Below, one piece after another: positions 32,298-57,320 of a stretch of DNA of 64,000 bases. The stretch is from contig JBILLS010000003.1 of NCBI GenBank assembly GCA_044375955.1, positions 2,471 through 66,470 of the forward strand, written 5' to 3'. The notes under the pieces were generated by a model, which ran no database searches, was not told where the DNA came from, and was given only the letters and a program-made list of their open reading frames with translations. The position numbers were made by a program, and so were the translations under genes. Position 1 is the first letter of the stretch; each line of letters starts with the position of its first letter. The DNA is from Candidatus Nanopelagicales bacterium (GTDB taxonomy: Bacteria; Actinomycetota; Actinomycetes; S36-B12).

Positions 32298-32374
32298 GGC
32301 CAGGTAGCTCAGTTGGTACGAGCGTCCGACTGAAAATCGGAAGGTCGACGGTTCGATCCCGTCCCTGGCCACCA
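32298..32374 (+). tRNA. tRNA-Phe (anticodon GAA), CCA encoded
   Basis: Acceptor GGCCAGG/CCTGGCC, anticodon loop CTGAAAA, T-arm GACGG-TTCGATC-CCGTC. Confidence 0.9.
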
Positions 32375-32777: not shown

Positions 32778-33016
32778 TGGAGGTCCATTCCTCCGCGCTT
32801 AAACATGGAATCTCTGCTGAGAGTTCAATTTTCGTCGCATCAAATTCACTGTTCGTTTCCCTGCTGGACGATGACAACCCATCACGCGAATTACGTCTTG
32901 GTTTTGATGAGGCTGGACGATTACTCGAGTTAGTAGTTTTAATATTTGATAGCGGAAACGAGTTAATCATTCATGCGATGAAGGCTCGATCGCAGTATTA
33001 CGAACTCATAAAATAG
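32777..33016 (+). CDS. BrnT/DUF497-like toxin (tentative)
   Basis: ALKHGIS near the N-terminus and GRLLELVVLIFDSGNELIIHAMKARSQYYE near the C-terminus resemble the BrnT pattern (KHGV ... GRL..VV ... IISMRKA). GTG start at 32777. Confidence 0.5.
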   Translation: MEVHSSALKHGISAESSIFVASNSLFVSLLDDDNPSRELRLGFDEAGRLLELVVLIFDSGNELIIHAMKARSQYYELIK

Positions 33017-33796: not shown

Positions 33797-33845
33797 CCGA
33801 CTGAAAATCGGAAGGTCGACGGTTCGACCCCGCCCCTGGCCACCA
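33797..33845 (+). repeat. 49-nt copy of the 3' half of tRNA-Phe (att-like repeat 1)
   Basis: CCGACTGAAAATCGGAAGGTCGACGGTTCGAcCCCGcCCCTGGCCACCA compared with 32326-32374 shows 2 mismatches in 49. There is no 5' half upstream. Confidence 0.85.
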
Positions 33846-35955: not shown

Positions 35956-36000
35956 CCGACTGAGAATCGGAAGGTCAGCGGTTCGACCCCGCCTCTGCCC
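35956..36000 (+). repeat. Diverged copy of the 3' half of tRNA-Phe (att-like repeat 2)
   Basis: CCGACTGAgAATCGGAAGGTCaGCGGTTCGAcCCCGcCtCTGcCC aligns without gaps to 32326-32370, with about 6 mismatches. Confidence 0.6.
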
Positions 36001-36297
36001 CCCCGGTCGAGATTCCCTCGCAATTGACCGCCACTCAGACCACCTTCCGATCTTGGGACTGTGATGGCTGCGTCGTGAACGATCAATTGATGACTCAACC
36101 AACAGCATCGCAAGGTAGGGCTGCCCTTGAATCGCAAGGGCTTCGTTCAGCAGAGTCTTTCGTTGGATCGTCGCCGCGGGGCGTGGCGACAATCAGTGCT
36201 CGAGTGCCCAGCGGGCCTGAAGCAGACACAACGGATCAATCGAGACCTATACTCACCGACGTAGACCATCGGCCTATTCATCCAGCAATGGATCGTC

Positions 36298-37038: not shown

Positions 37039-37297
37039 TTGGCAACTATTCCACCTCGAAAGCGTGACGACCCGCGGCCAAGATGCTGGGCGGAAAGGAG
37101 GCTCGCAGGGAACAGGGTGATCCGTGGTGCACGGAAGGCCGATGTCCGAGGTGCCCTTCAGATGAGCCCGGAATCGCTCTGAAACGCCGTCCATCGACTG
37201 AAGATCGCAAGAGCGGCGCTTCGACTCGGCGTCTGGCCACCACTCGTATCCCCTGATCAACGGCCCGCTTGGCGCTGTCTGGACACCACCGATGCGT

Positions 37298-38463: not shown

Positions 38464-39498
38464 GTGACACGCATCGCCCTTACCCGTATTGCTGTAGCGG
38501 GGATCGCCGCGATAGTCATGGCCAGCGGATCGATGGCCTATGCCGCAAATGACGGAACCGTTGAGGACACCTTCCCGACCGTGGTTGCTCTCGAACCGAA
38601 GACCCATCATCGACAGTCCGTCTTCAGCGTCGAATTCGATGTCGCCCGGGACAAGGAACGGCGCTTCATTACCAGCTTGCTGACTGTCAAGGACACCACC
38701 GACCGTCTCTTCCTCGGACAAGAGCTCGCATGCACGAGCCCCTCGGGCAAGGCAGTCATCGGCATGGAGACAGGCCGCAACTTCTGGCAAGACGGTCTCG
38801 GAAGCACAGTCGCCTCGTTCGTCCTCAAGGCCAATGAGGCGGGGCGCTGGAAATGCGAATCAACCGTGAACCTGTGTGTTCCGGGCCAATGTGACTCCGG
38901 GCAGGGTTCCGGCACCTTGACCTTGGAAGCCGGTAGTGCCGTTTCGGCCATGAAGGTCAGCAGGCCCCTGGAGTTGTGGTCAACGAGTGCTCGGTTCATC
39001 ACCAAAGATCAGGCGATCAAGCCAGGCAAGTCCCTCTCTCTGAGCAAGACGTTCACCGTGGGGCAAGGCGCAACTCCCACGGTGATCGGGGAGTTCTCCT
39101 TCAGCAATTGCATTGAGCCCACCTACCCCAATGCCTGCGGCACCCTCACCAGCCACAACATCAACGGATCAGCAACAGCCTCGGTTGCCATGAAGGTTGC
39201 TCAGGTTCCGGCCAAAGCTGGAGCACAATGCTCCGTCGCCTCGGCAACATCCGGCCAAGGTCAGGGCGTGCGCACCATTACGGCAGAGCAGCACCATGCC
39301 ACTTTCTCCATTGAGATTCCCAACATCTCACTGAGCTCTTCACCTGATTGCACGAACAAGGTCACGGTTTCGGCTACTTTCCGGTCCATCAAGGGCAACG
39401 GAATCGTGATCGAGGGCGGTACGAGCAAGAAGCCGATGTCTCTGGTCAGCATCGGAGAGATTGATACGGCCTATCAATCGATACCAGTGACGCCTTGA
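38464..39498 (+). CDS. Secreted hypothetical protein (Ser/Thr/Gly-rich, several Cys pairs)
   Basis: GTG start and signal peptide (IAVAGIAAIVMASGSMAYA). Ends 10 nt before the first sulfotransferase-like gene. Confidence 0.6.
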   Translation: MTRIALTRIAVAGIAAIVMASGSMAYAANDGTVEDTFPTVVALEPKTHHRQSVFSVEFDVARDKERRFITSLLTVKDTTDRLFLGQELACTSPSGKAVIGMETGRNFWQDGLGSTVASFVLKANEAGRWKCESTVNLCVPGQCDSGQGSGTLTLEAGSAVSAMKVSRPLELWSTSARFITKDQAIKPGKSLSLSKTFTVGQGATPTVIGEFSFSNCIEPTYPNACGTLTSHNINGSATASVAMKVAQVPAKAGAQCSVASATSGQGQGVRTITAEQHHATFSIEIPNISLSSSPDCTNKVTVSATFRSIKGNGIVIEGGTSKKPMSLVSIGEIDTAYQSIPVTP

Positions 39499-39508
39499 TC
39501 GCGCATCA

Positions 39509-40642
39509 ATGGCCACTTCACTTGTCATTCATGTAGGCCCGCGAAAGACTGGAACGACATACCTGCAGAGGGCCCTGACGCTGGCGGCCCCAACACTGCG
39601 TGAGTCTGGCGTGCTCTACGTCACCCGCCTCGCAGGAGTCAGTCGCTACAACCACGTGGCCGCGACCTACGCGGTGTCAGGTTTGCGATCGGGGCGATCG
39701 AGCCACATATGGCGGAACGTCAGTGAGGAGAACATCCGTGACCTCGCGCGCCAGGTGGATGCTTGGGACGGCCCCGCCATCATCTCATCGGAGGCACTGG
39801 GTGGACTGAGCACGGCCGAGGCGACCACGTTCATCTCTTGTCTGCCCAGCGCACCGGTGCATGTGATCGCCACACTCCGGGCGCTGCCTGATGTCGTGCT
39901 GTCCTCGTGGTCGCAGAACGTGCTCAACCTGCATACCCAATCGCTCGACACCTACGTCGAGCGCTTCATCAAGCGTCGGACGCAATTGCCACCGGCGGAG
40001 CGCTGGCGGCTGTGGGACGAAGATCGTCACGCGACCTTCTGGCGCAGTTACGACTATCCGGGTCTGCTTTCCCGGTGGCTACACATGGGCTTTCCCGTGA
40101 GCGCTGTCGTCGTGCCAGACTCCGCGCAACCGCGCGATGAGCTGTGGAATCGCTTTCGTGAGGCCGTCAACCTCGATGCTCTTCCCCTGATCGCCCCGAA
40201 GGTGCCCGGTGCTCAAGCCAATGGAGCTCGATCCCTAGAGGAGCTCGAGGTCATCCGCAGAACCGTCATAAGCGCCACCCGACAGGGACTGACCCTGGAT
40301 GATCTCCGACCACTTCGCGGAAAGCGATGGAAACTCCCGCGAGGCACCTCTCTACGCTCCGGCACTCGGCCGGGATTGGCTCCGGCCGCCGCGGAGGTCT
40401 TCGCGCAATGGGCACGGGAAGACGTGGACCTCTTGGCGAAGCTCCCCATAAGCCTCGTTGGCCCCAGGGAAGAACTGCTGCGCCCAACGCGCCCACAGCA
40501 GCCGCCACAGTACGCCGCTTACGCAGAGGCGGCGGGCTTTCTGGTCGCGAACCGCATTCTGGGCAAGCAGGGCGGCCGGACTTGGCGATCATGGCTTCGA
40601 CCAAGTCGGCGCGCGTTCCGACTGGGCAGGTGGGGCACGTGA
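39509..40642 (+). CDS. Sulfotransferase-like P-loop protein (divergent)
   Basis: N-terminal HVGPRKTGTTYLQ resembles the PAPS 5'-phosphosulfate-binding loop (PKxGTT). Clear paralog of the next gene. Confidence 0.55.
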   Translation: MATSLVIHVGPRKTGTTYLQRALTLAAPTLRESGVLYVTRLAGVSRYNHVAATYAVSGLRSGRSSHIWRNVSEENIRDLARQVDAWDGPAIISSEALGGLSTAEATTFISCLPSAPVHVIATLRALPDVVLSSWSQNVLNLHTQSLDTYVERFIKRRTQLPPAERWRLWDEDRHATFWRSYDYPGLLSRWLHMGFPVSAVVVPDSAQPRDELWNRFREAVNLDALPLIAPKVPGAQANGARSLEELEVIRRTVISATRQGLTLDDLRPLRGKRWKLPRGTSLRSGTRPGLAPAAAEVFAQWAREDVDLLAKLPISLVGPREELLRPTRPQQPPQYAAYAEAAGFLVANRILGKQGGRTWRSWLRPSRRAFRLGRWGT

Positions 40643-41712
40643 CCCGCTGCATACACCTGCATATCGGTCCAAGGAAGTCCGGCACAACCTTCCTGCAGCA
40701 GGCACTCATCTCCAATGCGCAGGCGCTCCGTGCCGAAGGTTTGCTCTATCCGGTGACCGGCCGGTCGCTGCGGCAGCGCCTTCTGGGTGCACCTCGGTGG
40801 CTCAACCACGAGAAGGAGTTGCTTGCCGCCTGCACCGCAGAAGCCAGCTCCACGACCGAGTGGCTCTCGCGCGAACTGGCGGCTACGTCAGAAGACGTCA
40901 TCCTTTCCGGCGAGGCTGTAGCAGCCTGCTCGCCGGCTGAGTTGGATCACCTGACCGCCAACGTGGGCGTAGGTGACCTTCATGTGATCATCACGGCACG
41001 AGCACTAGAAGCTGTTATCCCTTCTACTTGGCAGCAGCACATTCGCAATGGTCGAACGGCCTCGTTGGCGACCTTTGTCGACAACATCGCCAGACTCAAC
41101 GACCAGCGCCAGCAAGCTCCGCTGACCTGGGCCACTGATCCAGCTCAGGGTTTCTGGCTCGCGAACGACCACGCGGCCCTCGCCGAACGCTGGATCGCCC
41201 GAGGGGCACAGGTGAGTGTCGTGACAGTGCCCGCGGGCGCCGCGCCCGCCGAGACTCTCTGGCAGCGCTTTCTCAGGGCGTTGGGATTGAGCAATGCCGC
41301 GATCACGGCATCTACCATCCCAAACATGCAGCCACTTCATGTCGGTCTCACTGCACCCGAGGCTCTCACCCTGAGGGAGATCGTCTGGCAGTTGGAGTGT
41401 GGTGGCATGGACATCTCGGAGCGCCGCCGATGGGCTCATCGCTTGGTCGACGACGTCTTCCGCGGGCGCCCGACACGTGGTCCGGCCCTGCATCTGACGG
41501 GCGCGGACCTCCATCGGGCTCGGCAGTCGGCCGCGGATGACGCCGCACAGTTGGCCACTCTCGTAGAGAACGGTCAGATAGCTCTCTACGGAGATCTTGC
41601 CGACCTGACACCCAGCGAGATCGTGGTGGAGATTGACCAGGCCCAACTCTCGCGCGAGATCACCAACCTCGGCGGCCGTTGCATCGCCTACCTCGAGGGA
41701 GCCCGCTCATGA
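40639..41712 (+). CDS. Sulfotransferase-like P-loop protein (divergent paralog)
   Basis: GTGA overlap at 40639-40642 gives the N-terminus VTRCIHLHIGPRKSGTTFLQ, colinear with the previous protein. Shared blocks: ISSEAL/LSGEAV, HVI.T.RAL, VVPxxxxPxxLWxRF. Confidence 0.55.
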   Translation: MTRCIHLHIGPRKSGTTFLQQALISNAQALRAEGLLYPVTGRSLRQRLLGAPRWLNHEKELLAACTAEASSTTEWLSRELAATSEDVILSGEAVAACSPAELDHLTANVGVGDLHVIITARALEAVIPSTWQQHIRNGRTASLATFVDNIARLNDQRQQAPLTWATDPAQGFWLANDHAALAERWIARGAQVSVVTVPAGAAPAETLWQRFLRALGLSNAAITASTIPNMQPLHVGLTAPEALTLREIVWQLECGGMDISERRRWAHRLVDDVFRGRPTRGPALHLTGADLHRARQSAADDAAQLATLVENGQIALYGDLADLTPSEIVVEIDQAQLSREITNLGGRCIAYLEGARS

Positions 41713-42431
41713 TTGTGGTTGTCTGCGGCCAGCACCGCTCCGGCTCGACCCTGACATGGCAGGTGGCCCACGAGTTGCTCACCTCAGCGCCATCTGCTTC
41801 AGCGCCATCTGTGTCAACGCCATTGTCGACCCCGAGGGAGGACTTGCAGATGCTCGCCCTTGACCCAGGCGACATCCGCATGGTCAAGGTGCACTTCTCC
41901 CCCGTGATGAAGAAGAAGGAATTTCCCCAGCAGGGTGCTCGCTACATCTACACCTATCGGGACCCACGTGACGTGGCGGCCTCGCTGATTCGCAAGGGCC
42001 GGTACCACCACGGTCACGAGAAGCGCGGAGTCGAAGGCGTCACGGCGATAGTCCGTCGCGAGCTGCGCGGTGACACCTTCTGGCGAACGCGGGAGAACTT
42101 GTGGATTGGGCGCTACGAAGAACTTGCGCAGGACATTCCAGGACTGGTGCGCTCTCTTGCAGACTTTCTCAGTGTTCCTGTGGACGAGGATTCAGTGCGG
42201 CGCATCACCGATTTCGTATCCGTCGATCGCCAGCGCGAGCGCGTGGCGGACGTCCGTGATCACGGAGTCGATCCTTCCCTGCGCATCACCTCGAACCACA
42301 TCACCGACGGGCAGGAGGGAGCGTGGCGAGCCACACTCACTTCCGAGGAGGTTGCCGCTATTGAAGTGGTGGCGACTGAGTGGATGCGAGCCCACGGCTA
42401 CGTGTGCGAGACGCTGCCACGACAGCTGTGA
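41709..42431 (+). CDS. Sulfotransferase (canonical PAPS-dependent type)
   Basis: 5'-PSB loop CGQHRSGSTL and 3'-PB motif YIYTYRDPRDVAAS. ATGA overlap with the previous gene. Confidence 0.8.
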   Translation: MIVVVCGQHRSGSTLTWQVAHELLTSAPSASAPSVSTPLSTPREDLQMLALDPGDIRMVKVHFSPVMKKKEFPQQGARYIYTYRDPRDVAASLIRKGRYHHGHEKRGVEGVTAIVRRELRGDTFWRTRENLWIGRYEELAQDIPGLVRSLADFLSVPVDEDSVRRITDFVSVDRQRERVADVRDHGVDPSLRITSNHITDGQEGAWRATLTSEEVAAIEVVATEWMRAHGYVCETLPRQL

Positions 42432-43488
42432 CAAACAGCGTCGCATCGTCCGCCCAGTTGTGATGGGCGAGCACGGCCGCCCGGCCATTGTCTCCAAGAC
42501 GCCGCCGGCGCTCCTCGTTCTGATGCAGTTCGATCACGGCTGTAGCAGCAGCAGCCGGGTCGCGAAAGGGCACGATGATGCCGGCGTCGTGACGATTGAG
42601 CACGTCAACGACCAGCGGCAAAGGAGTAGCAACCACGGGGATGCCCATGGCGAGGTACTCAAACACCTTGGTCGGATGAGAGTTTCGGTAGTTGTTCTCG
42701 TTATGCAGCAGTGACAATCCGGCGGTCACACCTCGCATGCGCTCGACCGCCTGGGGATGGGGCAGACGTCCATGCCAGCGCACATCCCCATCAAGATCGG
42801 CGCGCCGAAGTTGCTCTTCCACATCTGCGGATGCTGTGCCCACGATGTCCAAGACGATCCCGTGGGGGCGCAGCATTCGGCCGACCTCGATCAGGTCCAG
42901 AGCCCCTCTGGCCTTGGTCAGAGTGCTGACACACACGGCGCGACCCGGTCCCGGGCTGGGAGGATTGCCCTCAATGATCGTCGAATTCGGAACAACAGGG
43001 TGCGGGCGACGGAATCGCTCCGAATACGCCGCCTCGGCCAACAGGAGTTCACACCGGCGCTCCGCCCAACGCTCCAGCGCCCGGATACCGCCGGCCGCTA
43101 CTCGGTCGAGTGCCGGAGGAATCCATTCCTTGTAGGTCACGGCAGCCGCGGTGTCCTCGTGCACGTCCCAGACGACAGGCGTTTCGCGCACACTGGCGGC
43201 TGCCAATATCAGCTCTATATCGTGGATCAGGACGACGTCGTAATCACTGGCAGTCTGGCGCAACAGCCGCCGGGCCGCTCGCAGAGCACCCAGACGCCGC
43301 CGCCCAATGGAGCGCGGTAGATCGATCGTCGCAACATCGACCGGCGGATCGACACCGTGAGCTGAGAATGGGGCCGCATACGTGACCACATGTCCGGCAT
43401 CGACCAGGGCGGCGATCTGGCGCACCAGGATTCGAGTGTCGAGCGGGTGATGAACAACGGTCATCGCGAGAACCCGGATGGAGGTCAC
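42358..43488 (-). CDS. Glycosyltransferase, GT-B fold (GT4-like)
   Basis: C-terminal GT1/GT4 pattern (HNENNYRNSHPTKVFEYLAMGIPVVAT). ATGA-type coupling to the ABC ATPase gene upstream. Confidence 0.85.
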   Translation of the reverse strand: MTSIRVLAMTVVHHPLDTRILVRQIAALVDAGHVVTYAAPFSAHGVDPPVDVATIDLPRSIGRRRLGALRAARRLLRQTASDYDVVLIHDIELILAAASVRETPVVWDVHEDTAAAVTYKEWIPPALDRVAAGGIRALERWAERRCELLLAEAAYSERFRRPHPVVPNSTIIEGNPPSPGPGRAVCVSTLTKARGALDLIEVGRMLRPHGIVLDIVGTASADVEEQLRRADLDGDVRWHGRLPHPQAVERMRGVTAGLSLLHNENNYRNSHPTKVFEYLAMGIPVVATPLPLVVDVLNRHDAGIIVPFRDPAAAATAVIELHQNEERRRRLGDNGRAAVLAHHNWADDATLFVTAVVAASRTRSRGLASTQSPPLQ

Positions 43489-44276
43489 GGCTCCGGCCCG
43501 TGATCTGACCCTTGATGTCCCTGACGGCGAGCTCGGCGGCGGCGGGACTCTTCCGCGTAGGCATCGATTACATCGTCGGGTGTGCCGTCGCCCTCGATGC
43601 GTCCCTTCTCGATCCAGACCACGCGGGTGCAGGACCCTCGAATGGCCGACATCGAGTGGCTCACGAGGACAACGGCCTCGGCTCGGCCACGAAGCTGCCG
43701 CATGCGATCCATGCTGCGGTCCTTGAAATCGAGGTCACCTGTGACCAGCGCCTCGTCGAGCAGGAGGATCTCATGATCCACCGAAGAAGCAATCGCGAAC
43801 TTCAACCGAGCGGCCATCCCCGAGGAGTAGGTCGAGAGTGGCAGCTCAATATGGTCGGCGACACCGGAGAAGTCGATGATCTCGTCGATGCGCTCGCGGA
43901 CGGCTGCGCGAGTCATGCCCAGGGCAAGGCACCCGAGCTCAATGTTCTCTCGGCCGGAGAGTCGCGGCACGAGGGTCTTGCCGACACCAAGGAGTACGGG
44001 GGGTGATGATGTGTAGACGGCACCGCGGGTCAACGGCAACAGGCCGGCCATGGCCCGCAGCAGACTTGATTTTCCGGCGCCATTTCGACCGATGATGCCG
44101 ACGCTTTCACCCGCGGAGATCTCCAAGCTGACTCCGCGTACTGCCTCGACTTGTTGAGCCCGACGGGGAACGAGTCGGCCATGCGGGAATACGCGGTAGG
44201 ACACGGCGACGTCATCGAGGAGCAGCCGCAAGGTCGACTTCTCCGCCGATTCAGTCGCGTCCATAGGTCCCCTCAC
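43485..44276 (-). CDS. Polysaccharide/teichoic-acid-type ABC exporter, ATP-binding protein (Wzt/TagH-like)
   Basis: Walker A GRNGAGKSSL, signature YSSGM, Walker B ILLLDE. Confidence 0.9.
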   Translation of the reverse strand: MRGPMDATESAEKSTLRLLLDDVAVSYRVFPHGRLVPRRAQQVEAVRGVSLEISAGESVGIIGRNGAGKSSLLRAMAGLLPLTRGAVYTSSPPVLLGVGKTLVPRLSGRENIELGCLALGMTRAAVRERIDEIIDFSGVADHIELPLSTYSSGMAARLKFAIASSVDHEILLLDEALVTGDLDFKDRSMDRMRQLRGRAEAVVLVSHSMSAIRGSCTRVVWIEKGRIEGDGTPDDVIDAYAEESRRRRARRQGHQGSDHGPEP

Positions 44277-45117
44277 CCCGCCAGAAGACCACTACCCCGG
44301 CGGTGGCAGCAATCAACGACCACACGGCGGCGGCCACCCAGTTGGTGACGCCGCCCGGTGCGGTGTATCCGGTCAGGAGCGCATCCCGCATGACCGCAAG
44401 ATAGACAGCGCCGGGGTTGTAGACCAGCACGTACTCCACCCAGGTGGGCAGGTCGAGCTGTGAGATCCGCTCGGTAATCGGGAACATCACCCCGGACGCC
44501 AGCCCCCACAATCGCAGCACAAGCGGGAGGACCCCGCCGATATCGGGTGTGTGGCTCATCCACCGGGCGAGCAGCAGGGCGGCGCCCCAACCGAAGGGGA
44601 TTATGAGCAGGATCGCCAACGGCGCGAGCAGCCACGACCACGTCACCGGTTCGCCGGTCAGTATCAGGACGACAACGAGCACGGGAAGGGAGACCACGAA
44701 AGCTCGAACCTGCTGCACGACTGCGGCAGTCGGCAGGATCACCGCGGGGATCGGAAGAGAGGTGAGCAACCCTCGATTCGCCGAGACCGAGCGCGCGCCC
44801 GACTGTGCGCAACGACGGATGACGGCAAAGGTGAACACGCCCACCGCGAGGTAACCCAGGTAGTTCGGCACCGAAGTTCGGGCCCCCAGGAGCAAACCAA
44901 ACAGCACCCAGTAGGTGGCCATGGTCGTCAGTGGGTCCAGGACCTCCCAGAGAGGCCCAAGTCTCCGCGCCCGATTTCCCGCTTGAGTCTTGGCGCGGGC
45001 ATAGGCGCGGATGAATTCGCGACGCTGCCACAGGGCCCTGAGGTAGGTCATCAAGCTCAGACGGTCACCTACGCGTACGAGCCCAGCATCGTGTGCCCGC
45101 TGTGCAGCACTCACCAT
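44251..45117 (-). CDS. ABC-2 type exporter permease (Wzm/TagG-like)
   Basis: Six hydrophobic segments. The N-terminal LWQRREFIRAYARAK ... LGPLWEVLDPL is typical of the family. Start trimmed to MVSAAQ (45117). Confidence 0.85.
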   Translation of the reverse strand: MVSAAQRAHDAGLVRVGDRLSLMTYLRALWQRREFIRAYARAKTQAGNRARRLGPLWEVLDPLTTMATYWVLFGLLLGARTSVPNYLGYLAVGVFTFAVIRRCAQSGARSVSANRGLLTSLPIPAVILPTAAVVQQVRAFVVSLPVLVVVLILTGEPVTWSWLLAPLAILLIIPFGWGAALLLARWMSHTPDIGGVLPLVLRLWGLASGVMFPITERISQLDLPTWVEYVLVYNPGAVYLAVMRDALLTGYTAPGGVTNWVAAAVWSLIAATAGVVVFWRGEGTYGRD

Positions 45118-45145
45118 GGTGTGCTCCCCATTCCGTGCCGCGTCT

Positions 45146-46741: not shown

Positions 46742-46814
46742 GACTCAATGCTACGCACGCAATTGGCTGTCCATTTTTTTGAGCTGTCTGAACCCTTGAG
46801 GCGAGTCGATCACC

Positions 46815-47912
46815 GTGAACTTCCCTGATGTCTTGCACGTGATCGGCGCCCGGCCCAATGTTCCGAAAGCCGCGCCAGTTGTGCGGGCTCTTGCCAATGC
46901 CGGCGCCAGCCAACTGGTGGTGAACACCGGCCAGCACTACGACGACGCACTTTTCGGCTCCATGCTGCGAGCTGTGGGTATGCCAGCTCCTGACATCGAA
47001 CTCAATGTCGGCTCGGGCAGTCATGCCCGGCAGACTGCCGCCGTGCTCACGAGCATCGAGCCCGTTCTGCTCGAGCAGTCGCCGAGCATTGTTGTCGTAT
47101 ATGGCGACGTGAACTCCACTCTCGCAGCAGCACTGGCCGCTGCAAAGCTGCACCTGCCCGTAGCCCATGTGGAATCTGGGCTACGCAGCCACGACTTCGC
47201 GATGCCGGAAGAAGTCAATCGTCGCCTGGTAGATCATCTGAGCACGCTGCTCTTCGTCACGTCCCCCGATGCCTGGGTGAATCTCCGCGCTGAGGGCCTA
47301 GCGGATGGGCGCGCGATCGAGGTGGGTAATCCGATGATCGACTCACTTACATGGGCGCGCGATCTGACTGATCTCGACCAGAGGCGAATCGCACTCGACC
47401 TCCCCGAGGACTTCATCCTCGCGACTATTCACCGTCCCAGCAATGTCGACGATCCCGACCAGGTCGAGGCCGTGTTGGCACTGCTGCGCGAACTCGGCTC
47501 ACTCCTTCCGGTTGTGCTACCCGTGCATCCACGCTCCAGAGTCGCCCTTTCACCCGCGCAGAACTTCCCGGGAGTGCACCTCACGGCACCACTGGAGTAC
47601 CGCGACTTCCTCGCCGCTCTTGCAGGATCCCGAGTAGTTGTCACCGACTCCGGCGGGGTCCAAGAGGAGTCCTCGTTCCTCGGCGTCCCCTGTGTGACGA
47701 TCCGCACCACCACCGAGCGTCCGGTCACGATCACGCACGGAACAAACCGACTCGCCACGTTGGCTGGAGCAGCGGCGGAGGTCGACGCGATCCTGCGCAA
47801 CCCTCGACCCGCGCCTGCGAGTATTCCGCTGTGGGACGGGCATGCAGGGGATCGCATCGCACAGGCGCTACTGGCGTATCTGCGCCGAACCCATGAGTCA
47901 GCACATGTCTGA
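46815..47912 (+). CDS. wecB: UDP-N-acetylglucosamine 2-epimerase (non-hydrolysing)
   Basis: VAHVESGLRS, TIHRPSNVD and TDSGGVQEE motifs. Confidence 0.9.
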   Translation: MNFPDVLHVIGARPNVPKAAPVVRALANAGASQLVVNTGQHYDDALFGSMLRAVGMPAPDIELNVGSGSHARQTAAVLTSIEPVLLEQSPSIVVVYGDVNSTLAAALAAAKLHLPVAHVESGLRSHDFAMPEEVNRRLVDHLSTLLFVTSPDAWVNLRAEGLADGRAIEVGNPMIDSLTWARDLTDLDQRRIALDLPEDFILATIHRPSNVDDPDQVEAVLALLRELGSLLPVVLPVHPRSRVALSPAQNFPGVHLTAPLEYRDFLAALAGSRVVVTDSGGVQEESSFLGVPCVTIRTTTERPVTITHGTNRLATLAGAAAEVDAILRNPRPAPASIPLWDGHAGDRIAQALLAYLRRTHESAHV

Positions 47913-48657
47913 GTCACACATGAACATGACGCCAGGTATGGGTAGCGAGTTTGATGGCCACGAACCTGATGTGACTGACGCACTTGAGGCCGCACATGAG
48001 CGGGCCAAGCGGGCCGAGTTGGCCCTCGCCCGCGCCCAAGGCTCCTTGCCCATGACCGTCGGCCAGCTGGTGATCGATTCCGCCCAGAGCCCCACACGCC
48101 TACTCGCCCTACCCTTCACCCTGTTGCGCATCCGAAAGTCCAGACGCGCTGGGCGGTCACGGCTGGCAGAGCGCTCCGAGCCAGCAGTTGTCATGAGCGG
48201 TCGCGACGCGGGCCTTTCGACCAGCCCAGCCAGAGTGCTGACTCCGCGCCGCACCGTGACGACCGACGACCGACCCTCCATCATCGCGATTGCCCCACCC
48301 GAGGTGATCGATGCTCTTGGCGGTTTCGCCCATGTGAGCCAGGCATGGCCACATGACGCCGTCGAGCTCGTGCGGGTACTTGACCCTGACGGTGTCATCG
48401 TCCATGCGCACGCGGGCCAGCCCGGCACCCCATGGTTTCCGCTCGGCGAGCCCGGGGAAGCAGTACGCGAGCGCACCCTTCTCGAGATTCGTGCGATGTG
48501 CGAGCGCCTCGGGCGTCCGCTACTCATGGTGACCGACCCTTCGCGCGCTCCTGGTTTGACCGAGTTCGCTCGTGGCTGTGACCGCAGCATCAACGTGTCC
48601 GATGCCACGTCGGCCGAGGGAATCATCGCGGCGCTGATGGGTATTGACCGTGATTGA
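47905..48657 (+). CDS. Hypothetical protein in the glycan locus
   Basis: ORF coupled to wecB (ATG 47905 inside ATGTCTGA; alternatives 47893 and 47842). One amphipathic/hydrophobic segment. No family recognised. Confidence 0.45.
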   Translation: MSESHMNMTPGMGSEFDGHEPDVTDALEAAHERAKRAELALARAQGSLPMTVGQLVIDSAQSPTRLLALPFTLLRIRKSRRAGRSRLAERSEPAVVMSGRDAGLSTSPARVLTPRRTVTTDDRPSIIAIAPPEVIDALGGFAHVSQAWPHDAVELVRVLDPDGVIVHAHAGQPGTPWFPLGEPGEAVRERTLLEIRAMCERLGRPLLMVTDPSRAPGLTEFARGCDRSINVSDATSAEGIIAALMGIDRD

Positions 48658-50818
48658 TCGGACCCTGCGGGCGCTTGTCTACGGCGACGTCAACCTCAAC
48701 TTGATCGACGGATCTGCGGTCTGGCTGACCTCAACGGTCGAGTGCCTCGCAAACGCCGGCGTAGAGGTCACGGTGCTGCTCAAGTCACGCATCGAGACTG
48801 ATCGTCTGCTGTTGCCTCTACACGAACTTGCAAACGTGCACGTTGTCGAGCCAGCCTTCGCCACCATGTCAGCGGCGCAGGCTGCCGATGCCGCAGTGAG
48901 CCACCATGTCGAAAAGCACTTCGACCTCGTAGTGGTGCGCGGCTCTCGAGTGGCCTCGGCCATGGTCGCGACCGGGCAGTTCGAAGGAGTGCTGTGGACC
49001 TACCTGACCGACATCCCCCAGAGTGTTTCGACATTGGATCACGAGCGCCTTGTCGAACTGACGGCAATTGTCCGAGGAAGCCGTCGAGTGCTGTGCCAAA
49101 CACCCGAACTGCGCACATTCGTAGAGGCCGTCGTGCCCGGAGTGCACGGGCGAACCCTGTTGTGGGAGCCGATCATCCCCGATGCGCCACTGCCCGAGGC
49201 CGATGAAGTTCACAGTCGCGATGATCACGATCTTCGGCTCGGGTACGCCGGCAAGTTTGCACCTGCGTGGAACACCGACCTCATGCTCGCACTGCCGGCC
49301 CAGCTTTCTGCGCGGGGAGTTCCAACCCTTCTCGACATGGTTGGCGACAAGATCCATCGAGAGGATCGTGCCTTCGCTCAGCGGATGGACAGTGGACTGC
49401 GCGGTACGCCAGGGGTCACCTGGCACGGCGGCCTTGATCGTAAGTCCACCCTCGCGCTGATGGCTGCGTGCGACGTCGGGCTCTCCTGGCGAGACACCTG
49501 CCTTGATGACTCTCTCGAGTTGTCCACAAAGGCACTGGAATACGCGTCCGTCGGAACGCCGCCGGTTCTCAACCGCACGCCGATGCACGAGCGCGTGTTC
49601 GGCGCGGACTATCCGCTGTTCACCGATCCGACCACGACCGTCGCCGACCTGCTGGCCCGCGTGCATGCCGACCGAGAGCTGCTACGCCGCACAAGCGAAC
49701 GCGCACGAGCGGTAACTGAGCATTACACGATGACAGCGGCGGTCGAGCGGACGCGGCGCATCCTCGCTCGGGCCTTCCCGTCGGCGTCCGCTGTGGGCGG
49801 TCAACCGCTGCGTGTGGTGATCGCCGGGCACGATCTGAAGTTCATGCGAGGAATCGCTGACCTGCTTGCAGCGCGAGCCGACCTCGATGTTCGTATCGAC
49901 GAATGGTCGGCCTTGGCCGTGCACGATGAAGAGCACAGTCGTGCGATGCTCGCCTGGGCAGATGTGGTGATCTGCGAGTGGGTAGGCCCGAACGCCGTCT
50001 GGTACTCCACCCGACTACTGCCCCATCAGCGTTTGATCATGCGCCTGCATCGCTTCGAACTGAATGCGCCCTGGATCCGCGACCTTCAGCCCTCGGCGGT
50101 AACGCGCATTGTGTGCGTGAATGAGCACTACCGACAGCGGACGGTTTCCGAGACCGCATTCGCTAGCGACACGGTCGTGGTCATTCCCAACGCCATTGAC
50201 CGCGACTGGTTCGACCGCCCCGCGGCTCCTGGCGCTGACCGAGTTCTGGGCATGTTGGGAATCGTGCCCTTCCGCAAGCGGCCGGACCGGGCGCTGTCCA
50301 TCCTGCGTGCTGTCAACGAGGGACTGGCTTCCGCTCGCATCCCCGGGCCACCGTTCTTGCTGTCGTTGAAGTCGGCGCTGCCGTGGGAGTTGACCTGGAT
50401 CTGGAACCGACCACAGGAACGCATTGCCTACCGGGCCCTGTTTGACGAAATTGCCCAGGATCCAGCGCTGCGTGGCCGGGTTGTTCTCGACAAGCACGGC
50501 GGTGACGTACCTGCTTGGCTGCAGCGCACCGGCTGGGTCCTGTCGTTATCCGAGGACGAGAGCTTTCATCTGGCCCCCGCTGAAGGCATGGTGGCTGGCG
50601 CGATACCGGCCCTGCTCAACTGGCCAGGAGCAGCGGACGTGTACGACGCTCGGTACGTGCACGCGAACGAGTCCGCCATCGCCCAGCACATCCTTGATGT
50701 CACCGCCGAGGGTTCGTGGGAGCGTCGGAGCAATGAGGTCCGCGCAGACTTCCGCGATGCCTACGACCTTCCGACGGTGGCAGAACAGTGGGCACGCCTC
50801 GTGATGGAGGGGCGATGA
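48644..50818 (+). CDS. Two-module glycosyltransferase (two GT-B-like halves)
   Basis: 724 aa. Both halves show the GT4/GT1 C-terminal pattern (ELSTKALEYASVGTPPV and ESFHLAPAEGMVAGAIP). Confidence 0.75.
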   Translation: MTVIDRTLRALVYGDVNLNLIDGSAVWLTSTVECLANAGVEVTVLLKSRIETDRLLLPLHELANVHVVEPAFATMSAAQAADAAVSHHVEKHFDLVVVRGSRVASAMVATGQFEGVLWTYLTDIPQSVSTLDHERLVELTAIVRGSRRVLCQTPELRTFVEAVVPGVHGRTLLWEPIIPDAPLPEADEVHSRDDHDLRLGYAGKFAPAWNTDLMLALPAQLSARGVPTLLDMVGDKIHREDRAFAQRMDSGLRGTPGVTWHGGLDRKSTLALMAACDVGLSWRDTCLDDSLELSTKALEYASVGTPPVLNRTPMHERVFGADYPLFTDPTTTVADLLARVHADRELLRRTSERARAVTEHYTMTAAVERTRRILARAFPSASAVGGQPLRVVIAGHDLKFMRGIADLLAARADLDVRIDEWSALAVHDEEHSRAMLAWADVVICEWVGPNAVWYSTRLLPHQRLIMRLHRFELNAPWIRDLQPSAVTRIVCVNEHYRQRTVSETAFASDTVVVIPNAIDRDWFDRPAAPGADRVLGMLGIVPFRKRPDRALSILRAVNEGLASARIPGPPFLLSLKSALPWELTWIWNRPQERIAYRALFDEIAQDPALRGRVVLDKHGGDVPAWLQRTGWVLSLSEDESFHLAPAEGMVAGAIPALLNWPGAADVYDARYVHANESAIAQHILDVTAEGSWERRSNEVRADFRDAYDLPTVAEQWARLVMEGR

Positions 50819-51714
50819 CTACTTCGGATCTCGAACAAGCGGTACTGGTTGGTGGCACCGGTCGCAGCGGCACCACGATCGCCGGTCGCGTTCTGAACAA
50901 CCATCCGGCGCTCGCGCTCACCACTCCGGGCGAAGTACGTTTCCTGACGGGTAAAGGGGGGATCATTGAGACCCTCGGACCGGTACTGCCCGGCGGGAGG
51001 CTTGGAGACTCCGATCCCGAGCAGTTTGCTCGGCGGATGCAAGGGCGGTTCTATCGGTGGTCCAAGCCGTCCGGTGCCAAAGAGGGACTGCATCGCAGCG
51101 TCGACGAGGCCGTCCTCGATGCTGCGGTGACGAACTACCTCGACGAGGTGTCGGCCGACCCGGTTGGTGCTAGTCGGCGTCTGATCTTTGCGATCATCCC
51201 CTCCACCCTGAGGTCAAGCGCCGGCAGCCGTTGGGTCGACACCACCCCCTCCAATGTCCAGTCGGTCCGTGCCTTGCATGCACTCCTGCCCGAGGCAAAG
51301 TTCGTACACATGATGCGCGACGGACGTGACGTCGCGGTCTCCTTCGCAAGCAAGCGATTCGGGCCGGGTGATCCACTCGAGGCGCTGGAGAAATGGGGGG
51401 AGAGAATGCTCCGCTCATTCGCCGAGGAGAGCGCGGTTCCCGCAGGCATGGTGATCAGGGTCGACCTCGCCGACTGGGTGGGGCCCGACGGCATCGACTC
51501 GCTCCGCACAGTGTGTGACTTTCTCGGGGCAGACCGCAACGCGGGACTTGAGAACTGGTTCAGTGCGAACGTCACCTCCGATGCGATGCATGGTGGTCGT
51601 TGGCGCCGCGACCTCACCACTGAGACCGCCGAGGCGTTGGACCATCGCTACAGGAACTGGTGCGATCTGCTCACCGAGCGGTATCCGCAGTTCCCTCTGC
51701 CCCGAGCCACGTGA
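50815..51714 (+). CDS. Sulfotransferase (canonical PAPS-dependent type)
   Basis: 5'-PSB loop GGTGRSGTT and 3'-PB motif FVHMMRDGRDVAVS. ATGA overlap with the preceding glycosyltransferase. Confidence 0.8.
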   Translation: MTTSDLEQAVLVGGTGRSGTTIAGRVLNNHPALALTTPGEVRFLTGKGGIIETLGPVLPGGRLGDSDPEQFARRMQGRFYRWSKPSGAKEGLHRSVDEAVLDAAVTNYLDEVSADPVGASRRLIFAIIPSTLRSSAGSRWVDTTPSNVQSVRALHALLPEAKFVHMMRDGRDVAVSFASKRFGPGDPLEALEKWGERMLRSFAEESAVPAGMVIRVDLADWVGPDGIDSLRTVCDFLGADRNAGLENWFSANVTSDAMHGGRWRRDLTTETAEALDHRYRNWCDLLTERYPQFPLPRAT

Positions 51715-53254
51715 GGTTGGCAACCATCCGCGTTGTCAAGCCTCTGTCGGAGCACTGAACATCCCAGGCGCGCTGGGGCGGTCGCTTCTTTCCTTGATAC
51801 GACATCACCGCAACTGCCTTGGCGTCCGTCGCGCGGCCATCAGCCGTGCAGGAAACCTCCACAATGGCCCCGCCAGGCCCCGCCATTCGCCTCACTGTGC
51901 TACTGCCCACATCAGGCAATGGGCTCCACTCGGGACTGAATTGCCAGTGCTGAATCCATTGCTGGTTGACGTCATCAGACCTTGCAACATCCCGTATCCG
52001 CAGACGGTCCACGTCAAACACCACCGTGCGATTCCGCCGGATCTCCCCATTGCTGACGAGCTCGTACGCACTGGCCCCACGCTTGCGTCCTGTCATCGGA
52101 GCATCATTCGATCGACCGACAGCTTCGAGCACCGAGTGGGCTGCGACTCCTCGGCTCCAGGCGAGTGCGGTGGCATCTCTCTTGTCAGCAGTTCCTCGGT
52201 CAGAAAGAACGGGGGTGCCGCGTGTGAACCACGTAATCGATCCCTTGTCCACGTGTCCATGCATTGCGCGCGGCGGTCCGAAACGCAGCGTGTAGTGCAT
52301 ACCCGACTTCGTGTCCGCCGCCCATCCCTCTTCCGGACACCACAGACCCCCACCTGTGGGCTGCTGGCTGTCCCTATTGCCGTTCCCGATCTCCTCGAGG
52401 ACACCATCGGGCCGGACGAGAGCACTTCCTGCTTGGGCAGTCATGTGATGCCGGGGCAGGCCAGCCTCCTTCGCAAGTCTTCCCCAAAGCCGCGTGTTGT
52501 AGAAGTGATAGGCGCTCGACTGCTCACGACTGATACCGCAGTCGGAGAACACGGCGTTGTAGTCGCGCAGGATCCGCTGACGACTCTTCACTGCCCACTC
52601 GGGGTGACCAAAGGTTTCCGCTGCCTTCAGAAGAATCAGATTGGACTGAGCCCCGTGATTGTGGGGCATGTGCAACGGAAGCCCGATGTAACGGCGGTCG
52701 TCTAGCAGCGCGGTTCCCAGGATGTCTGCGGTTGTGACGAAGATCGACGAGGGGGCAACACGGTTCAGGCAGATCATGGTTTTCAAACGGCGCCGGATCT
52801 GACCTTCCGTCCACCCCGAACTCTGACTTTGCACCTTCGTTGCAGTCGGTCCCGGATCAGGGAATGTGCGTGCGAAGAGCGAGACAATCGAAGCCGCAGT
52901 TTCCGGTTGACTCGAAGCAATGGGCATCAGCCACGCAAGCGAATGGAACCACAGTGACTCCTGTGCCGAGTTCGCCCGAAAAGCTCGGAGGCCGGAAGCT
53001 GTCAATGACACCCGCTGTGAGCCCCAGTCGAGCGAGGTCGTGGCCTCGGCCGGATTCCCGGTGAACGTGGCAGCCTGTTGATGCAGCCGTTCACAGGCGC
53101 CCGCGCTTACCGTGTGAGTCGAGAAACCACCTGATGACCGCGTCGCCGAGGAGGCAGGTTCGACACCGCCGGCCACAGGTGAGCCGGCAGTGAGCAGGAA
53201 GACCACCGCCGCAAGAGTCCCGAAATTGAGTCCGTTGCGGGCCCGTCTTGACAT
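51671..53254 (-). CDS. Secreted heparinase II/III-like (alginate-lyase-fold) protein
   Basis: Signal peptide after the ATG at 53254. HMPHNHGAQS, SSAYHFYN and HGHVDKGSITWF match the toroid plus Hepar_II_III C-terminal pattern. Confidence 0.75.
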   Translation of the reverse strand: MSRRARNGLNFGTLAAVVFLLTAGSPVAGGVEPASSATRSSGGFSTHTVSAGACERLHQQAATFTGNPAEATTSLDWGSQRVSLTASGLRAFRANSAQESLWFHSLAWLMPIASSQPETAASIVSLFARTFPDPGPTATKVQSQSSGWTEGQIRRRLKTMICLNRVAPSSIFVTTADILGTALLDDRRYIGLPLHMPHNHGAQSNLILLKAAETFGHPEWAVKSRQRILRDYNAVFSDCGISREQSSAYHFYNTRLWGRLAKEAGLPRHHMTAQAGSALVRPDGVLEEIGNGNRDSQQPTGGGLWCPEEGWAADTKSGMHYTLRFGPPRAMHGHVDKGSITWFTRGTPVLSDRGTADKRDATALAWSRGVAAHSVLEAVGRSNDAPMTGRKRGASAYELVSNGEIRRNRTVVFDVDRLRIRDVARSDDVNQQWIQHWQFSPEWSPLPDVGSSTVRRMAGPGGAIVEVSCTADGRATDAKAVAVMSYQGKKRPPQRAWDVQCSDRGLTTRMVANLTWLGAEGTADTAR

Positions 53255-53272
53255 TGATGCATTATCTACCGC

Positions 53273-54541
53273 GTGGGTGACCCCGTCGTAGCAGTGGTCG
53301 GCCTGGGCTACGTCGGTCTCCCGCTTGCGGCGAGAGCAGTGGAGACCGGGCTTCGCGTGGTAGGTGTTGACATCGACGCCGACCGGGTTGCGGCACTTAC
53401 CGTCGGTCGCTCGCATATCGATGACCTCGCTGATGCCGATGTCCGTGCAATGCTTGACCGCGGGTTTCGTGCCACGACTTCGGTGGGTCCGGAAGATGCC
53501 ATCGATGTATTCGTCATCTGTGTTCCCACGCCTCTCCTACCTGATGGCGGACCGGACTTGAGTGCCGTACGGGCCGCAGGGGCCGCGATCGTACGCGCTC
53601 TGCGGCCAGGAGCACTCGTCGTGCTGGAGTCAACCAGCTACCCAGGAACTACCGAGGATGAACTGAGACCGATTCTCGAGGCTGACGGCCTCGTGGCGGG
53701 TCGGGACTTCGCCCTCGCATTCTCGCCCGAACGCATTGATCCCGGGCGGAAGACCCATGACTATGCCTCGGTGCCCAAGGTTGTCGGCGGCCTTACGCAC
53801 GAGTGCCGCGATGCGGCTGCAGAGTTCTACGGGAGACTCGTCACGACGGTGGTTACCACCCGTGGACTACGCGAGGCCGAGATGGCCAAACTGCTCGAGA
53901 ACACATACCGGCACGTCAACATCGCTCTCGTCAACGAGATGGCGCGCTTTTGTCATGGCCTCGGAATCGATCTGTGGGATGCGATCGATGCTGCTGCAAC
54001 AAAGCCGTTCGGCTTCCAGCGCTTCGATCCGGGCCCAGGTGTTGGTGGTCACTGCATCCCGATCGACCCGAACTACCTCAGCCACTACGTGCAGGAGCAG
54101 ACCGGTGAGCCGTTCAGATTTGTCCACCTTGCGCAGGAGATCAATGCCGCCATGCCTGAGTTCGTCGTGGCGCGAGTACAGCAGCTGTTGCTTGACCGAG
54201 GGATCGCATTGTCGGAGGCTCGGGTTCTGCTGATTGGGGTGACCTACAAGGCCGATGTCGCGGATGATCGTGGGACTCCCGCTCTGCCGATCGCAGTTTC
54301 CTTGGCTGCTGCCGGTGCGCAGGTGATGTTTCACGATCCTCTCCTCCCGAACTGGACCGCCGGCGATGTCCCGCTGGTGGCGGTGCGGCTACTCGATCAG
54401 GCATTCGATGCTTGCGATATCGCCGTACTGCTGCAGGCTCACGGAGTACTTGACCTCGAGATGATCGCCTCGTCTGTGCCGGCCCTACTGGACGCTCGGG
54501 GAGTTGTGCCACGGGGCATTCCCGGGGTTGCGTACCTGTGA
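53273..54541 (+). CDS. wecC: UDP-N-acetyl-D-mannosamine (nucleotide-sugar) dehydrogenase
   Basis: VVGLGYVGLPLA NAD motif and catalytic GGHCIPIDP. Paired with wecB in the same locus. Confidence 0.85.
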   Translation: MGDPVVAVVGLGYVGLPLAARAVETGLRVVGVDIDADRVAALTVGRSHIDDLADADVRAMLDRGFRATTSVGPEDAIDVFVICVPTPLLPDGGPDLSAVRAAGAAIVRALRPGALVVLESTSYPGTTEDELRPILEADGLVAGRDFALAFSPERIDPGRKTHDYASVPKVVGGLTHECRDAAAEFYGRLVTTVVTTRGLREAEMAKLLENTYRHVNIALVNEMARFCHGLGIDLWDAIDAAATKPFGFQRFDPGPGVGGHCIPIDPNYLSHYVQEQTGEPFRFVHLAQEINAAMPEFVVARVQQLLLDRGIALSEARVLLIGVTYKADVADDRGTPALPIAVSLAAAGAQVMFHDPLLPNWTAGDVPLVAVRLLDQAFDACDIAVLLQAHGVLDLEMIASSVPALLDARGVVPRGIPGVAYL

Positions 54542-57137: not shown

Positions 57138-57320
57138 GCCCCTGAACCTATGGTCTATCGGCACTCAAGGCAAGGAGAGGGCGCGCGAACGTCAACTCGG
57201 CCAGTGAACGGCCTCAACCGCGCGACAGATGACCCCTCACCCACCTGTTCATCAAGAAATCGGATGGTCGGCAGTGCGACCCCGCCCCTGACCACCGGAT
57301 GTGCGCTGTAGGTTCTCAGC

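Follow-up and report, generated by a model that had tools for sequence, protein, structure and literature searches.

A conserved and apparently mobile 16-kb gene cassette for a probably sulfated, ABC-transporter-exported envelope polysaccharide in an uncultured freshwater actinobacterium

The window analyzed in this work is a 64,000-nucleotide stretch of DNA from a Candidatus Nanopelagicales bacterium (assembly GCA_044375955.1, contig JBILLS010000003.1, positions 2,471 to 66,470 of the forward strand), and its subject is a block of genes at positions 38464-54541. We propose that this block is a mobile cassette of about 16 kb in an uncultured freshwater actinobacterium and, with moderate confidence, that it serves to make an acidic envelope or capsular heteropolysaccharide that depends on an ATP-binding cassette (ABC) transporter and is probably O-sulfated before export. 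For the sulfation of the polymer we rely on gene content, which makes it probable. An earlier reading of the same DNA, made from its letters alone (the sequence-only reading), had described 16 contiguous genes; the reading of the open reading frames (ORFs) and independent gene calls on identical metagenome contigs agree on 14, which we designate A to N.

The case for sulfation begins with genes D (41709-42431, plus strand, 240 aa) and L (50815-51714, plus strand, 299 aa). In a Pfam search, D matched Sulfotransfer_1 (PF00685) with 62.7 bits against a cutoff of 22 (E = 4.5e-17), and L matched Sulfotransfer_3 (PF13469) with 71.2 bits against a cutoff of 27 (E = 1.9e-19). Both lie where the sequence-only reading had placed sulfotransferases, and the motifs it quoted are present: GQHRSGSTL as the 5'-phosphosulfate-binding (5'-PSB) loop and YRDPRDVAAS as the 3'-phosphate-binding (3'-PB) motif of D, and GTGRSGTT with MRDGRDVAVS in L. 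The loop of D carries an arginine, as do those of Stf0 and NodH. Its closest PDB sequences are retinol dehydratase and the cytosolic SULTs, with the catalytic histidine and RDPRDVA(A/V)S in register, so that "vkvHfsp" of D aligns with "vktHlpl" of retinol dehydratase. Those closest to L are tyrosylprotein sulfotransferases. We found 321 homologues of L, some of them named sulfotransferase in metagenome-assembled genomes (MAGs) of Nanopelagicales; PF13469 was present in all 120 of those listed, and both G13-T21 (the PSB loop) and R168-S176 (the 3'-PB motif) were invariant among 33 homologues. As no signal peptide was found in D or L, the two enzymes should act in the cytoplasm, where the sulfate donor 3'-phosphoadenosine-5'-phosphosulfate (PAPS) occurs. 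By motif and profile, both proteins belong with the PAPS-dependent sulfotransferases, and their motifs are intact.

Precursor synthesis, chain assembly and export would be covered by the surrounding genes. Gene I (46815-47912, plus strand, 365 aa) encodes a non-hydrolysing UDP-GlcNAc 2-epimerase of the WecB type (Epimerase_2, 6.8e-91) that exceeds the cutoff of the wecB equivalog TIGR00236 (268.7 against 210.15 bits) and is predicted to make UDP-ManNAc. The product of N (53273-54541, plus strand, 422 aa; other gene calls start later) is a WecC-like nucleotide-sugar 6-dehydrogenase with three UDPG_MGDP_dh domains. It passes the NDP-sugar dehydrogenase subfamily model with 389.5 bits against a cutoff of 189.8, and is predicted to make a UDP-N-acetylhexosaminuronic acid, most likely UDP-ManNAcA. 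The Wzm/Wzt exporter of the sequence-only reading (given there as 44251-45117 and 43485-44276) is encoded by G (44251-45117, minus strand, 288 aa), an ABC-2 permease of the Wzm type with an ABC2_membrane score of 29.5 bits against a cutoff of 26.9, and by F (43485-44264, minus strand, 259 aa), a Wzt-type ATPase with an above-cutoff ABC_tran match at 1e-18. The two genes overlap and are flanked by genes for family 4 glycosyltransferases (GT4). Among the NCBIfam models, F comes closest to the mycobacterial galactan exporter Wzt/RfbE and to TagH, without reaching the equivalog cutoff of either, and G to the galactan exporter permease Wzm/RfbD. Like the mycobacterial Wzm/Wzt (RfbD/RfbE) and TagGH systems, F and G combine a short ATPase, with no C-terminal glycan-binding domain, and an overlapping permease gene; nevertheless, they fall well short of the cutoffs of those exporter equivalogs (165 bits where 400 are required, and 59 where 380 are), and we therefore regard them as a different member of the exporter class.

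Three glycosyltransferases of the GT-B fold had been recognized in the letters (at 42358-43488, 45146-46741 and, with two modules, 48644-50818), and family matches bear all of them out. The first, E (42358-43488, minus strand, 376 aa), is a GT4 enzyme with Glycos_transf_1, Glyco_trans_1_4 and Glyco_trans_1_2 above cutoff. H (45146-46690, minus strand, 514 aa, with an ORF extending up to 46741) is another, with Glyco_transf_4 and Glyco_trans_1_4 matches, a stp3-like match at 8e-71 that stays below the equivalog cutoff, and an N-terminal extension, helical and some 140 aa long, in which we saw only weak hints of tetratricopeptide repeats. The GT4 enzymes also show weak similarity to TuaC and TuaH. 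K (48650-50818, plus strand, 722 aa) has two GT-B modules: residues 187-365 match Glycos_transf_1 and Glyco_trans_1_2, and residues 440-521 match Glyco_transf_4 weakly; it found no match among PDB sequences and is our candidate polymerase. The set is completed by A (38464-39498, plus strand), the first gene of the block, which encodes a secreted protein of 344 aa with an N-terminal signal peptide and no match in Pfam, NCBIfam or PDB, and by J (47905-48657, plus strand), for a conserved protein of 250 aa with no family match even at E<=1. Nothing usable came from relaxed Pfam scans or from PDB sequence searches with A, with J, with the second half of K, with the extension of H or with two further queries, d1 and d3.

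Further information on the polymer comes from M (51671-53254, minus strand, 527 aa, with an ORF up to 53416). That a secreted heparinase II/III-like protein is encoded at 51671-53416 was confirmed by a Hepar_II_III_C match of 31.1 bits against a cutoff of 24. A profile built from 33 M homologues reached heparinase III at 5e-11, in an alignment that brings the E-x-S-x-x-Y motifs together, and alginate lyases of polysaccharide lyase (PL) family 17 as well. The AlphaFold2 model of M has a mean confidence (pLDDT) of 86.3, with residues 1-50 of low confidence and signal-like. When compared with known structures using Foldseek, it matched HepC and heparinase III best (E 3e-20 to 2.5e-17, TM-score 0.54-0.68), followed by PL17, PL33 and PL15 lyases and then by dermatan sulfate epimerase 1 (6hzn, 1e-11). 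M thus shares with heparinase III (PL12) and the dermatan-sulfate C5-epimerase fold an (alpha/alpha)-toroid followed by a beta-sandwich and the Asn-His, Tyr and His catalytic set, which is represented in M by the invariant residues N199, H200, Y249, H332 and H334. It differs from heparinase III in being shorter (527 against about 640 aa) and only 12-14% identical, and from PL12 lyases in that its gene belongs to a biosynthetic block, not to a locus for catabolism. Considering these sequence and model comparisons, M should work outside the cell on a 4-linked uronic acid; lyase and C5-epimerase reactions have their first step in common, and cleavage appears likelier than C5 epimerisation. The presence in one block of M, presumably uronate-specific, and the sugar 6-dehydrogenase N points to a hexuronic-acid polymer.

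The block is preserved as a unit. Using tblastn, we found A to K collinear in contigs L007-L015; the order and orientation of all genes from A to N are identical in GCA_017856385.1, at 37-76% protein identity, and two more contigs (L080 and L081) agree for the part they cover, from C to N. Taken together, the copies, which come from other freshwater MAGs of Nanopelagicales or Actinomycetota, range from 37 to 93% protein identity and occupy three different neighborhoods. Of the two genes with no family, J is present in every copy (55-83% identity), and A accompanies the block in L007, L008, L011, L012, L014 and L015 (65-88%). In L007, at 83-93% identity, the flanks hold cytochrome oxidase, CtaG, redoxin and GNAT genes. 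In the group at 50-65% identity, genes for a penicillin-binding protein (PBP), a GT87 enzyme and a major facilitator superfamily transporter lie upstream, and those for a CCA-adding enzyme, a NUDIX protein, DUF6049 and MurJ downstream, which is a cell-envelope neighborhood. The ratio of nonsynonymous to synonymous substitution rates (dN/dS), computed for A to K between the window and L007, was 0.10-0.32 (A, 0.15; B, 0.32; C, 0.22; J, 0.20; D, B and C all within 0.18-0.32), and these genes are under purifying selection. The glycan export locus of the sequence-only reading is thus a coherent one for assembly and export, kept as a unit across species in differing neighborhoods, and it appears to be horizontally movable. 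We rejected the idea of an O-antigen or teichoic-acid locus of the ordinary kind in which the sulfotransferases are incidental, since all four sulfotransferase or sulfotransferase-like genes accompany it through three contexts. Two further observations concern these copies. An extra conserved gene of 416 aa precedes A in the group at 50-55% identity (7694-8944 in L069; also in L011 and L012) and is absent from the window and from L007. L007 itself (CAMCYV010000010.1, an actinobacterial MAG contig of 65% GC) is labelled "Bifidobacterium breve"; the genes it carries, together with an identity of 83-93% to the block, suggest a mislabel.

The remaining two members of the set, B (39509-40642, plus strand, 377 aa, loop HVGPRKTGTTYLQ) and C (40639-41712, plus strand, 357 aa from the GTG at 40639, with an alternative ATG at 40591; loop HIGPRKSGTTFLQ), are divergent paralogs that share 27% identity in a full-length alignment. 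The GPRK(T/S)GTT(Y/F)LQ loop by which the sequence-only reading had singled them out is present in both, as GPRKTGTTYLQ at 39509-40642 and as GPRKSGTTFLQ at 40639/40591-41712. Among 80 B relatives, H8, G10, K13, Q20, E95 and R124 are invariant, and the loop of the family reads G-x-x-K-(T/S)-G-(T/S)-T; its lysine precedes the second glycine, which fits a 5'-PSB loop and not the Walker A pattern GxxxxGK(S/T). R124 with a serine at +8 (S132 in B) reproduces the 3'-PB motif in B and C, and C retains the R...S pair within "TARALEAVIPSTWQQ". In the AlphaFold2 model of B (pLDDT 87.8, predicted TM-score 0.86), E95 follows a beta-strand, and E95 and H8 are the invariant candidate bases. Heparan-sulfate sulfotransferases of the NDST/3-OST type have an "xKxGTT" loop and a glutamate base. 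B and C share with them the lysine-containing PSB loop, the R...S of the 3'-PB motif and an invariant glutamate as candidate base, a resemblance in motifs and fold only, with no significant sequence or profile match. A lysine in the PSB loop, Arg...Ser in the 3'-PB motif and a histidine or glutamate base are also listed among sulfotransferase features (PMC11625862). In addition, the only Pfam families that recur among the 80 relatives, all below threshold, are sulfotransferases: Sulfotransfer_3 in 27 (best 2.7e-4), Sulfotransfer_1 in 10 and Sulfotransfer_4 in 2. These weak matches and the fold comparison are suggestive of a sulfotransferase reading rather than decisive, and we take B and C to be probable sulfotransferase-fold enzymes.

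Several findings weigh against the proposed cassette for a sulfated polymer, and the first group of them concerns these paralogs. Neither B nor C matched anything at a useful threshold in Pfam, NCBIfam or PDB sequences. Profiles of the B/C family found no significant sulfotransferase in PDB (SULT4A1 at E=0.63); aligned using hhalign with D, L and the L-family alignment they matched in short motifs alone, and the comparison with the L family, a genuine Sulfotransfer_3 family, was not significant and covered the loop only, at a probability of 4.5%. S132 is not conserved in the wider family, as a serine occupies the position in 40 of the 80 relatives. Foldseek returned sulfotransferases mixed with P-loop kinases for the B model, all at E>1e-3, with PFKFB kinase domains at the top by E-value, and so does not discriminate between the two groups. 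Moreover, many B/C relatives are single genes whose housekeeping surroundings have no relation to glycans. All of this would fit an explanation in which D and L sulfate the glycan while B and C are other P-loop-like enzymes, such as glycan kinases or nucleotide-binding accessories, and the polymer has fewer sulfation sites. The position of the loop lysine, the R124 and Ser +8 pair in both proteins, the restriction of recurrent weak Pfam matches to sulfotransferases (27, 10 and 2 of 80) and the match of the B model to several sulfotransferase structures (CurM ST, SULT1A3 and tyrosylprotein sulfotransferase) at Foldseek probabilities of 0.96-0.98, with TM-scores of 0.36-0.45, speak the other way. 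We consider this explanation unlikely, although it is the strongest of the alternatives. Of the four sulfotransferases originally proposed, then, D and L are borne out and pass the Pfam check. B and C follow sulfotransferase logic in their motifs, and their P-loop-like fold is compatible with it; they fail every curated threshold and match no curated family.

The family to which B and C belong is large. A word-based search found 53 B relatives, all unnamed, and a scan of species-representative genomes placed B relatives almost only in freshwater MAGs of Candidatus Nanopelagicales or other Actinomycetota. A profile search of 1.84 billion representatives gave 20,301 proteins with E<=1e-3, of which 2,035 had E<=1e-30; the family representatives were clustered at 50%. 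Tandem-fused forms of 750-800 aa occur, and one fused relative is encoded in a different cluster for a wall glycopolymer, together with GT2, GtrA, acyltransferase and glycerophosphotransferase genes; one further B relative has a context unrelated to glycans. There is no Pfam or NCBIfam model for the family, and none of ten B-family representatives has an informative name, six being unnamed and four called "hypothetical protein". We also observed a single B-like gene, 35-41% identical, at 10001-11179 of one Nanopelagicales metagenome contig (L061) and in another (L062), where it is a fixed neighbor of glnA, a pyridoxal-phosphate-dependent decarboxylase gene, glnE and a second glnA. This gene, whose place between glnA and glnE is fixed, is found in many freshwater actinobacterial MAGs, distant from glycan genes.

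A second group of contrary findings concerns the building of the chain. The best equivalog for N is UDP-ManNAc dehydrogenase, at 248.7 bits, below the cutoff of 459, so the uronic acid might be another; still, as this is the best-scoring equivalog, a WecC-like function is the likeliest for N. Hence, of the WecB and WecC-like enzymes named in the sequence-only reading, the first passes its equivalog model and the second is WecC-like only. Neither a polyprenyl-phosphate initiating transferase of the WecA/TagO type nor a LytR-CpsA-Psr (LCP) ligase was found in the block or among the window genes scanned; both may have their genes in another part of the genome. One could also picture the sulfotransferases acting on a lipid-linked oligosaccharide or glycolipid, to give an ABC-2-exported sulfoglycolipid comparable to the mycobacterial sulfolipids. 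Actinobacterial sulfotransferases of known substrate, for example Stf0, do act on glycolipids (PMC11625862), the Wzt protein F (259 aa) lacks a glycan-binding C-terminal domain, and no chain-length regulator was recognized in the block. However, the block holds no lipid-synthesis, acyltransferase or MmpL genes, the secreted polysaccharide-lyase-fold enzyme M and the two-module K suit a repeating polymer better, and elsewhere the block lies among the cell-wall genes for PBP, GT87 and MurJ. A sulfoglycolipid product is accordingly quite improbable.

The last contrary point is the supply of PAPS. We found no gene for ATP sulfurylase or APS kinase (cysD, cysN, cysC) among the roughly 40 window genes scanned, nor in the regions flanking four further copies of the block. 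In a study of Vibrio, PAPS genes together with sulfotransferase genes in one cluster are regarded as the hallmark of sulfated-capsule loci (PMC11641403); in our block the sulfotransferases are present and PAPS-synthesis genes were not found. Moreover, cultured Nanopelagicales have no complete assimilatory sulfate reduction (PMC12817590). These cultured strains have 40-51% GC, and the lineage of the window is a separate branch with 65% GC. Chiefly because no PAPS genes were found in the window or the flanks, our confidence that sulfation actually takes place stays moderate. The weakest explanation, that the cassette is carried by a host with no PAPS, its polymer unsulfated or its sulfotransferase genes relics, would agree with these negative searches, with the cultured relatives and with the apparent horizontal acquisition of the block, but we think it very improbable given that all sulfotransferase or sulfotransferase-like genes are intact and kept in every block copy, down to 37% identity, that purifying selection acts on D, B and C (dN/dS 0.18-0.32) and that the catalytic motifs of L do not vary in its 33 homologues.

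For the favored reading, an acidic polymer that is sulfated and then exported, we propose the following pathway. The chain would be built in the cytoplasm on a polyprenyl-phosphate primer, with the initiating transferase encoded elsewhere and K as the presumed polymerase. While the chain is still in the cytoplasm, D, L and probably also B and C would sulfate it at several positions with PAPS as the donor, and Wzm/Wzt (G and F) would export the finished product. Outside the cell, M would remove the proton at C5 of a 4-linked uronic acid, with cleavage as the most likely outcome, and so trim or release the polymer; A and J may be conserved accessory proteins. A more daring version, to which we give little credence, is a glycosaminoglycan-like polymer with an N-acetylhexosamine/uronic-acid backbone and up to four sulfated positions, in which M would be a polymer-level C5-epimerase and B and C would be carbohydrate sulfotransferases, the first characterised members of a family, still unnamed in databases, of more than 20,000 representative sequences that includes the single-copy gene between glnA and glnE of other Nanopelagicales.

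As for the layout of the block, the GTG start of C lies over the stop codon of B in a GTGA overlap, which, along with conserved convergent 3' overlaps, indicates tight gene coupling. The latter are those of the convergent pairs D/E (74 nt, 42358-42431) and L/M (44 nt, 51671-51714), which are retained in distant copies of the block (L068, L069 and L080). This retention suggests constraint or antisense coupling at the two overlaps. A scan of the block for promoters and terminators gave counts no higher than the shuffled expectation. An N-terminally shortened B of 343 aa, called in two contigs, was discarded as a gene-caller choice of start, since the DNA of the alignable one (L073) is identical to that of the window.

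The surroundings of the block agree with its proposed mobility. ARAGORN identified tRNA-Glu, tRNA-Asp and tRNA-Phe genes at 32111-32374, and the 3' half of the last (anticodon GAA, 32298-32374, plus strand), from the anticodon loop to CCA, recurs downstream as direct repeats. One copy lies at 33805-33844 (38 of 40 positions identical to the tRNA) and another at 35964-36003 (34 of 40 identical to the 33805-33844 copy). The left edge of a 20-kb islet is formed by a degenerate copy at 37195-37241 (plus strand, match at about 37202-37241), the weakest at about 75% identity, and its right edge by a copy at 57257-57296 (plus strand) with 35 of 40 positions identical to that at 33805-33844, for which the chance expectation is about 7e-9; the same repeat is also present in two other contigs (L064 and L065). 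Three small islets of 1.2-2.2 kb, with 56.9% GC, lie between the repeats, and the 20-kb islet (37242-57296, 63.7% GC) contains an HD-domain gene, A to N and a gene for a secreted protein of 596 aa. The tRNA-Phe islets upstream of the block were thus correctly perceived from the letters, and the block lies within a repeat-bounded islet. No integrase was found among the larger genes at 34.5-58.4 kb, searched with Pfam, or among the Pfam marks of contig L001 across 32.4-38 kb. Likewise, we found no empty site: using the upstream short-chain dehydrogenase/reductase gene as an anchor, all five same-population contigs that are long enough contain the islets as well as the beginning of the block. The suggestion of strain-variable surface chemistry is therefore supported between species, where the block occupies other loci, and not within the population. 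The block had also seemed less GC-rich than the core, and the direction of this difference is right; the drop is modest, from 66.4% in the upstream core and 63.9% downstream to 63.1%, with GC at third codon positions of 0.67-0.78 against 0.73-0.85.

Other features of the window deserve a brief description. Directly after tRNA-Phe, at 32517-33016, a ribbon-helix-helix (RHH_1) gene and an overlapping gene for 79-85 aa resemble a toxin-antitoxin pair. The secreted 596-aa protein (55095-56885, plus strand), inside the 20-kb islet and outside the conserved block, has a paralog of 649 aa (59167-61116, minus strand) that is 27% identical; neither could be assigned to a family, and the longer one has at its end six DDPGA repeats, which recur every 15 nt in the DNA. 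From 62528 to 64000 (plus strand) and past the end of the window runs a gene for a secreted glycine-rich protein with GGNGG(A/N)GG-type repeats, reminiscent of the mycobacterial PGRS proteins; its DNA has 71% GC, a strong positive GC skew and many repeats with 9-nt periodicity. Farther upstream, two cytochrome P450 genes are adjacent at 12267-14722, and a small lipid-like set at 20904-25314 comprises an NAD-dependent epimerase/dehydratase, an alpha/beta-hydrolase-AMP-binding fusion (807 aa) and a beta-ketoacyl synthase III (KAS III).

Clusters for sulfated polysaccharides are known from other bacteria: in cyanobacteria for synechan (PMC8205485), in rhizobia with KpsS (cited in PMC11625862), in marine Gram-negative bacteria with solved polysaccharide structures (PMC11641403; PMC11766843) and in Pontiella, which has a sulfated-polysaccharide gene cluster (PMC7356697). 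A 2026 study of Actinoplanes describes a candidate cluster of the Wzx/Wzy type for a sulfated exopolysaccharide, presented without chemical proof, and states that bacterial sulfated polysaccharides were reported only in cyanobacteria (PMC13390465), although the rhizobial and marine examples exist. A close parallel to our block is the locus of Vibrio sp. KMM 8419 (PMC11641403), which has in common with it cytoplasmic assembly, ABC export, several sulfotransferase genes, a deviating GC content and signs of horizontal transfer. That locus is, however, Gram-negative and of the Kps type (KpsMTED), makes a Rha/Glc polymer of solved structure and has its own copies of cysNDC, whereas the block has no cysNDC, its Wzm/Wzt is closest to mycobacterial and teichoic-acid exporters, and it is known from its genes alone. 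Synechan (xss, Synechocystis PCC 6803; PMC8205485) and wps-1 of Actinoplanes missouriensis (PMC13390465) resemble the block in having two sulfotransferases of different families, and wps-1 also in being actinobacterial with sulfation that is predicted only. Unlike the block, both are Wzx/Wzy-dependent; their gene sets differ and are described without a PL12-like enzyme or a pair of the B/C type, and wps-1 includes a GH26 hydrolase. Actinoplanes is a soil-dwelling sporangium-former, in contrast to the planktonic freshwater lineage that hosts the block.

Among monoderm polymers, teichuronic acids, such as the ManNAcA-Glc polymer of Micrococcus luteus and the product of the tua operon of Bacillus subtilis, are a close parallel. 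Both they and the proposed product are acidic, uronic-acid-containing wall polymers made by a 2-epimerase and 6-dehydrogenase route; nevertheless, the TuaC, TuaH and TuaD equivalog scores of the block are far below cutoff, and to our knowledge no known teichuronic acid is sulfated. The literature searched contained no mention of sulfotransferases together with Nanopelagicales. The pathway as a unit, which had been called undescribed, is indeed so for this lineage and gene set, but not in the general sense, considering the ABC-dependent sulfated capsule locus of Vibrio (PMC11641403) and the Actinoplanes candidate (PMC13390465). What appears new here is the lineage, the use of ABC-transporter export by a monoderm, the joint occurrence of two canonical and two divergent sulfotransferase or sulfotransferase-like genes with a PL12-fold enzyme, and the mobility of the cassette; such a pathway has hardly been described in Gram-positive bacteria.

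It is a common view that sulfated polysaccharides belong to animals, algae and cyanobacteria. If our reading is correct, sulfated envelope glycans would also occur in abundant planktonic freshwater actinobacteria, which would matter for recognition by phages and grazers, for the charge of the cell surface and for the organic sulfate ester pool of lakes. The cassette, compact at 16 kb, would then be a possible source of new polysaccharide sulfotransferases, and a function for the B/C family would annotate tens of thousands of proteins now listed as "hypothetical proteins".

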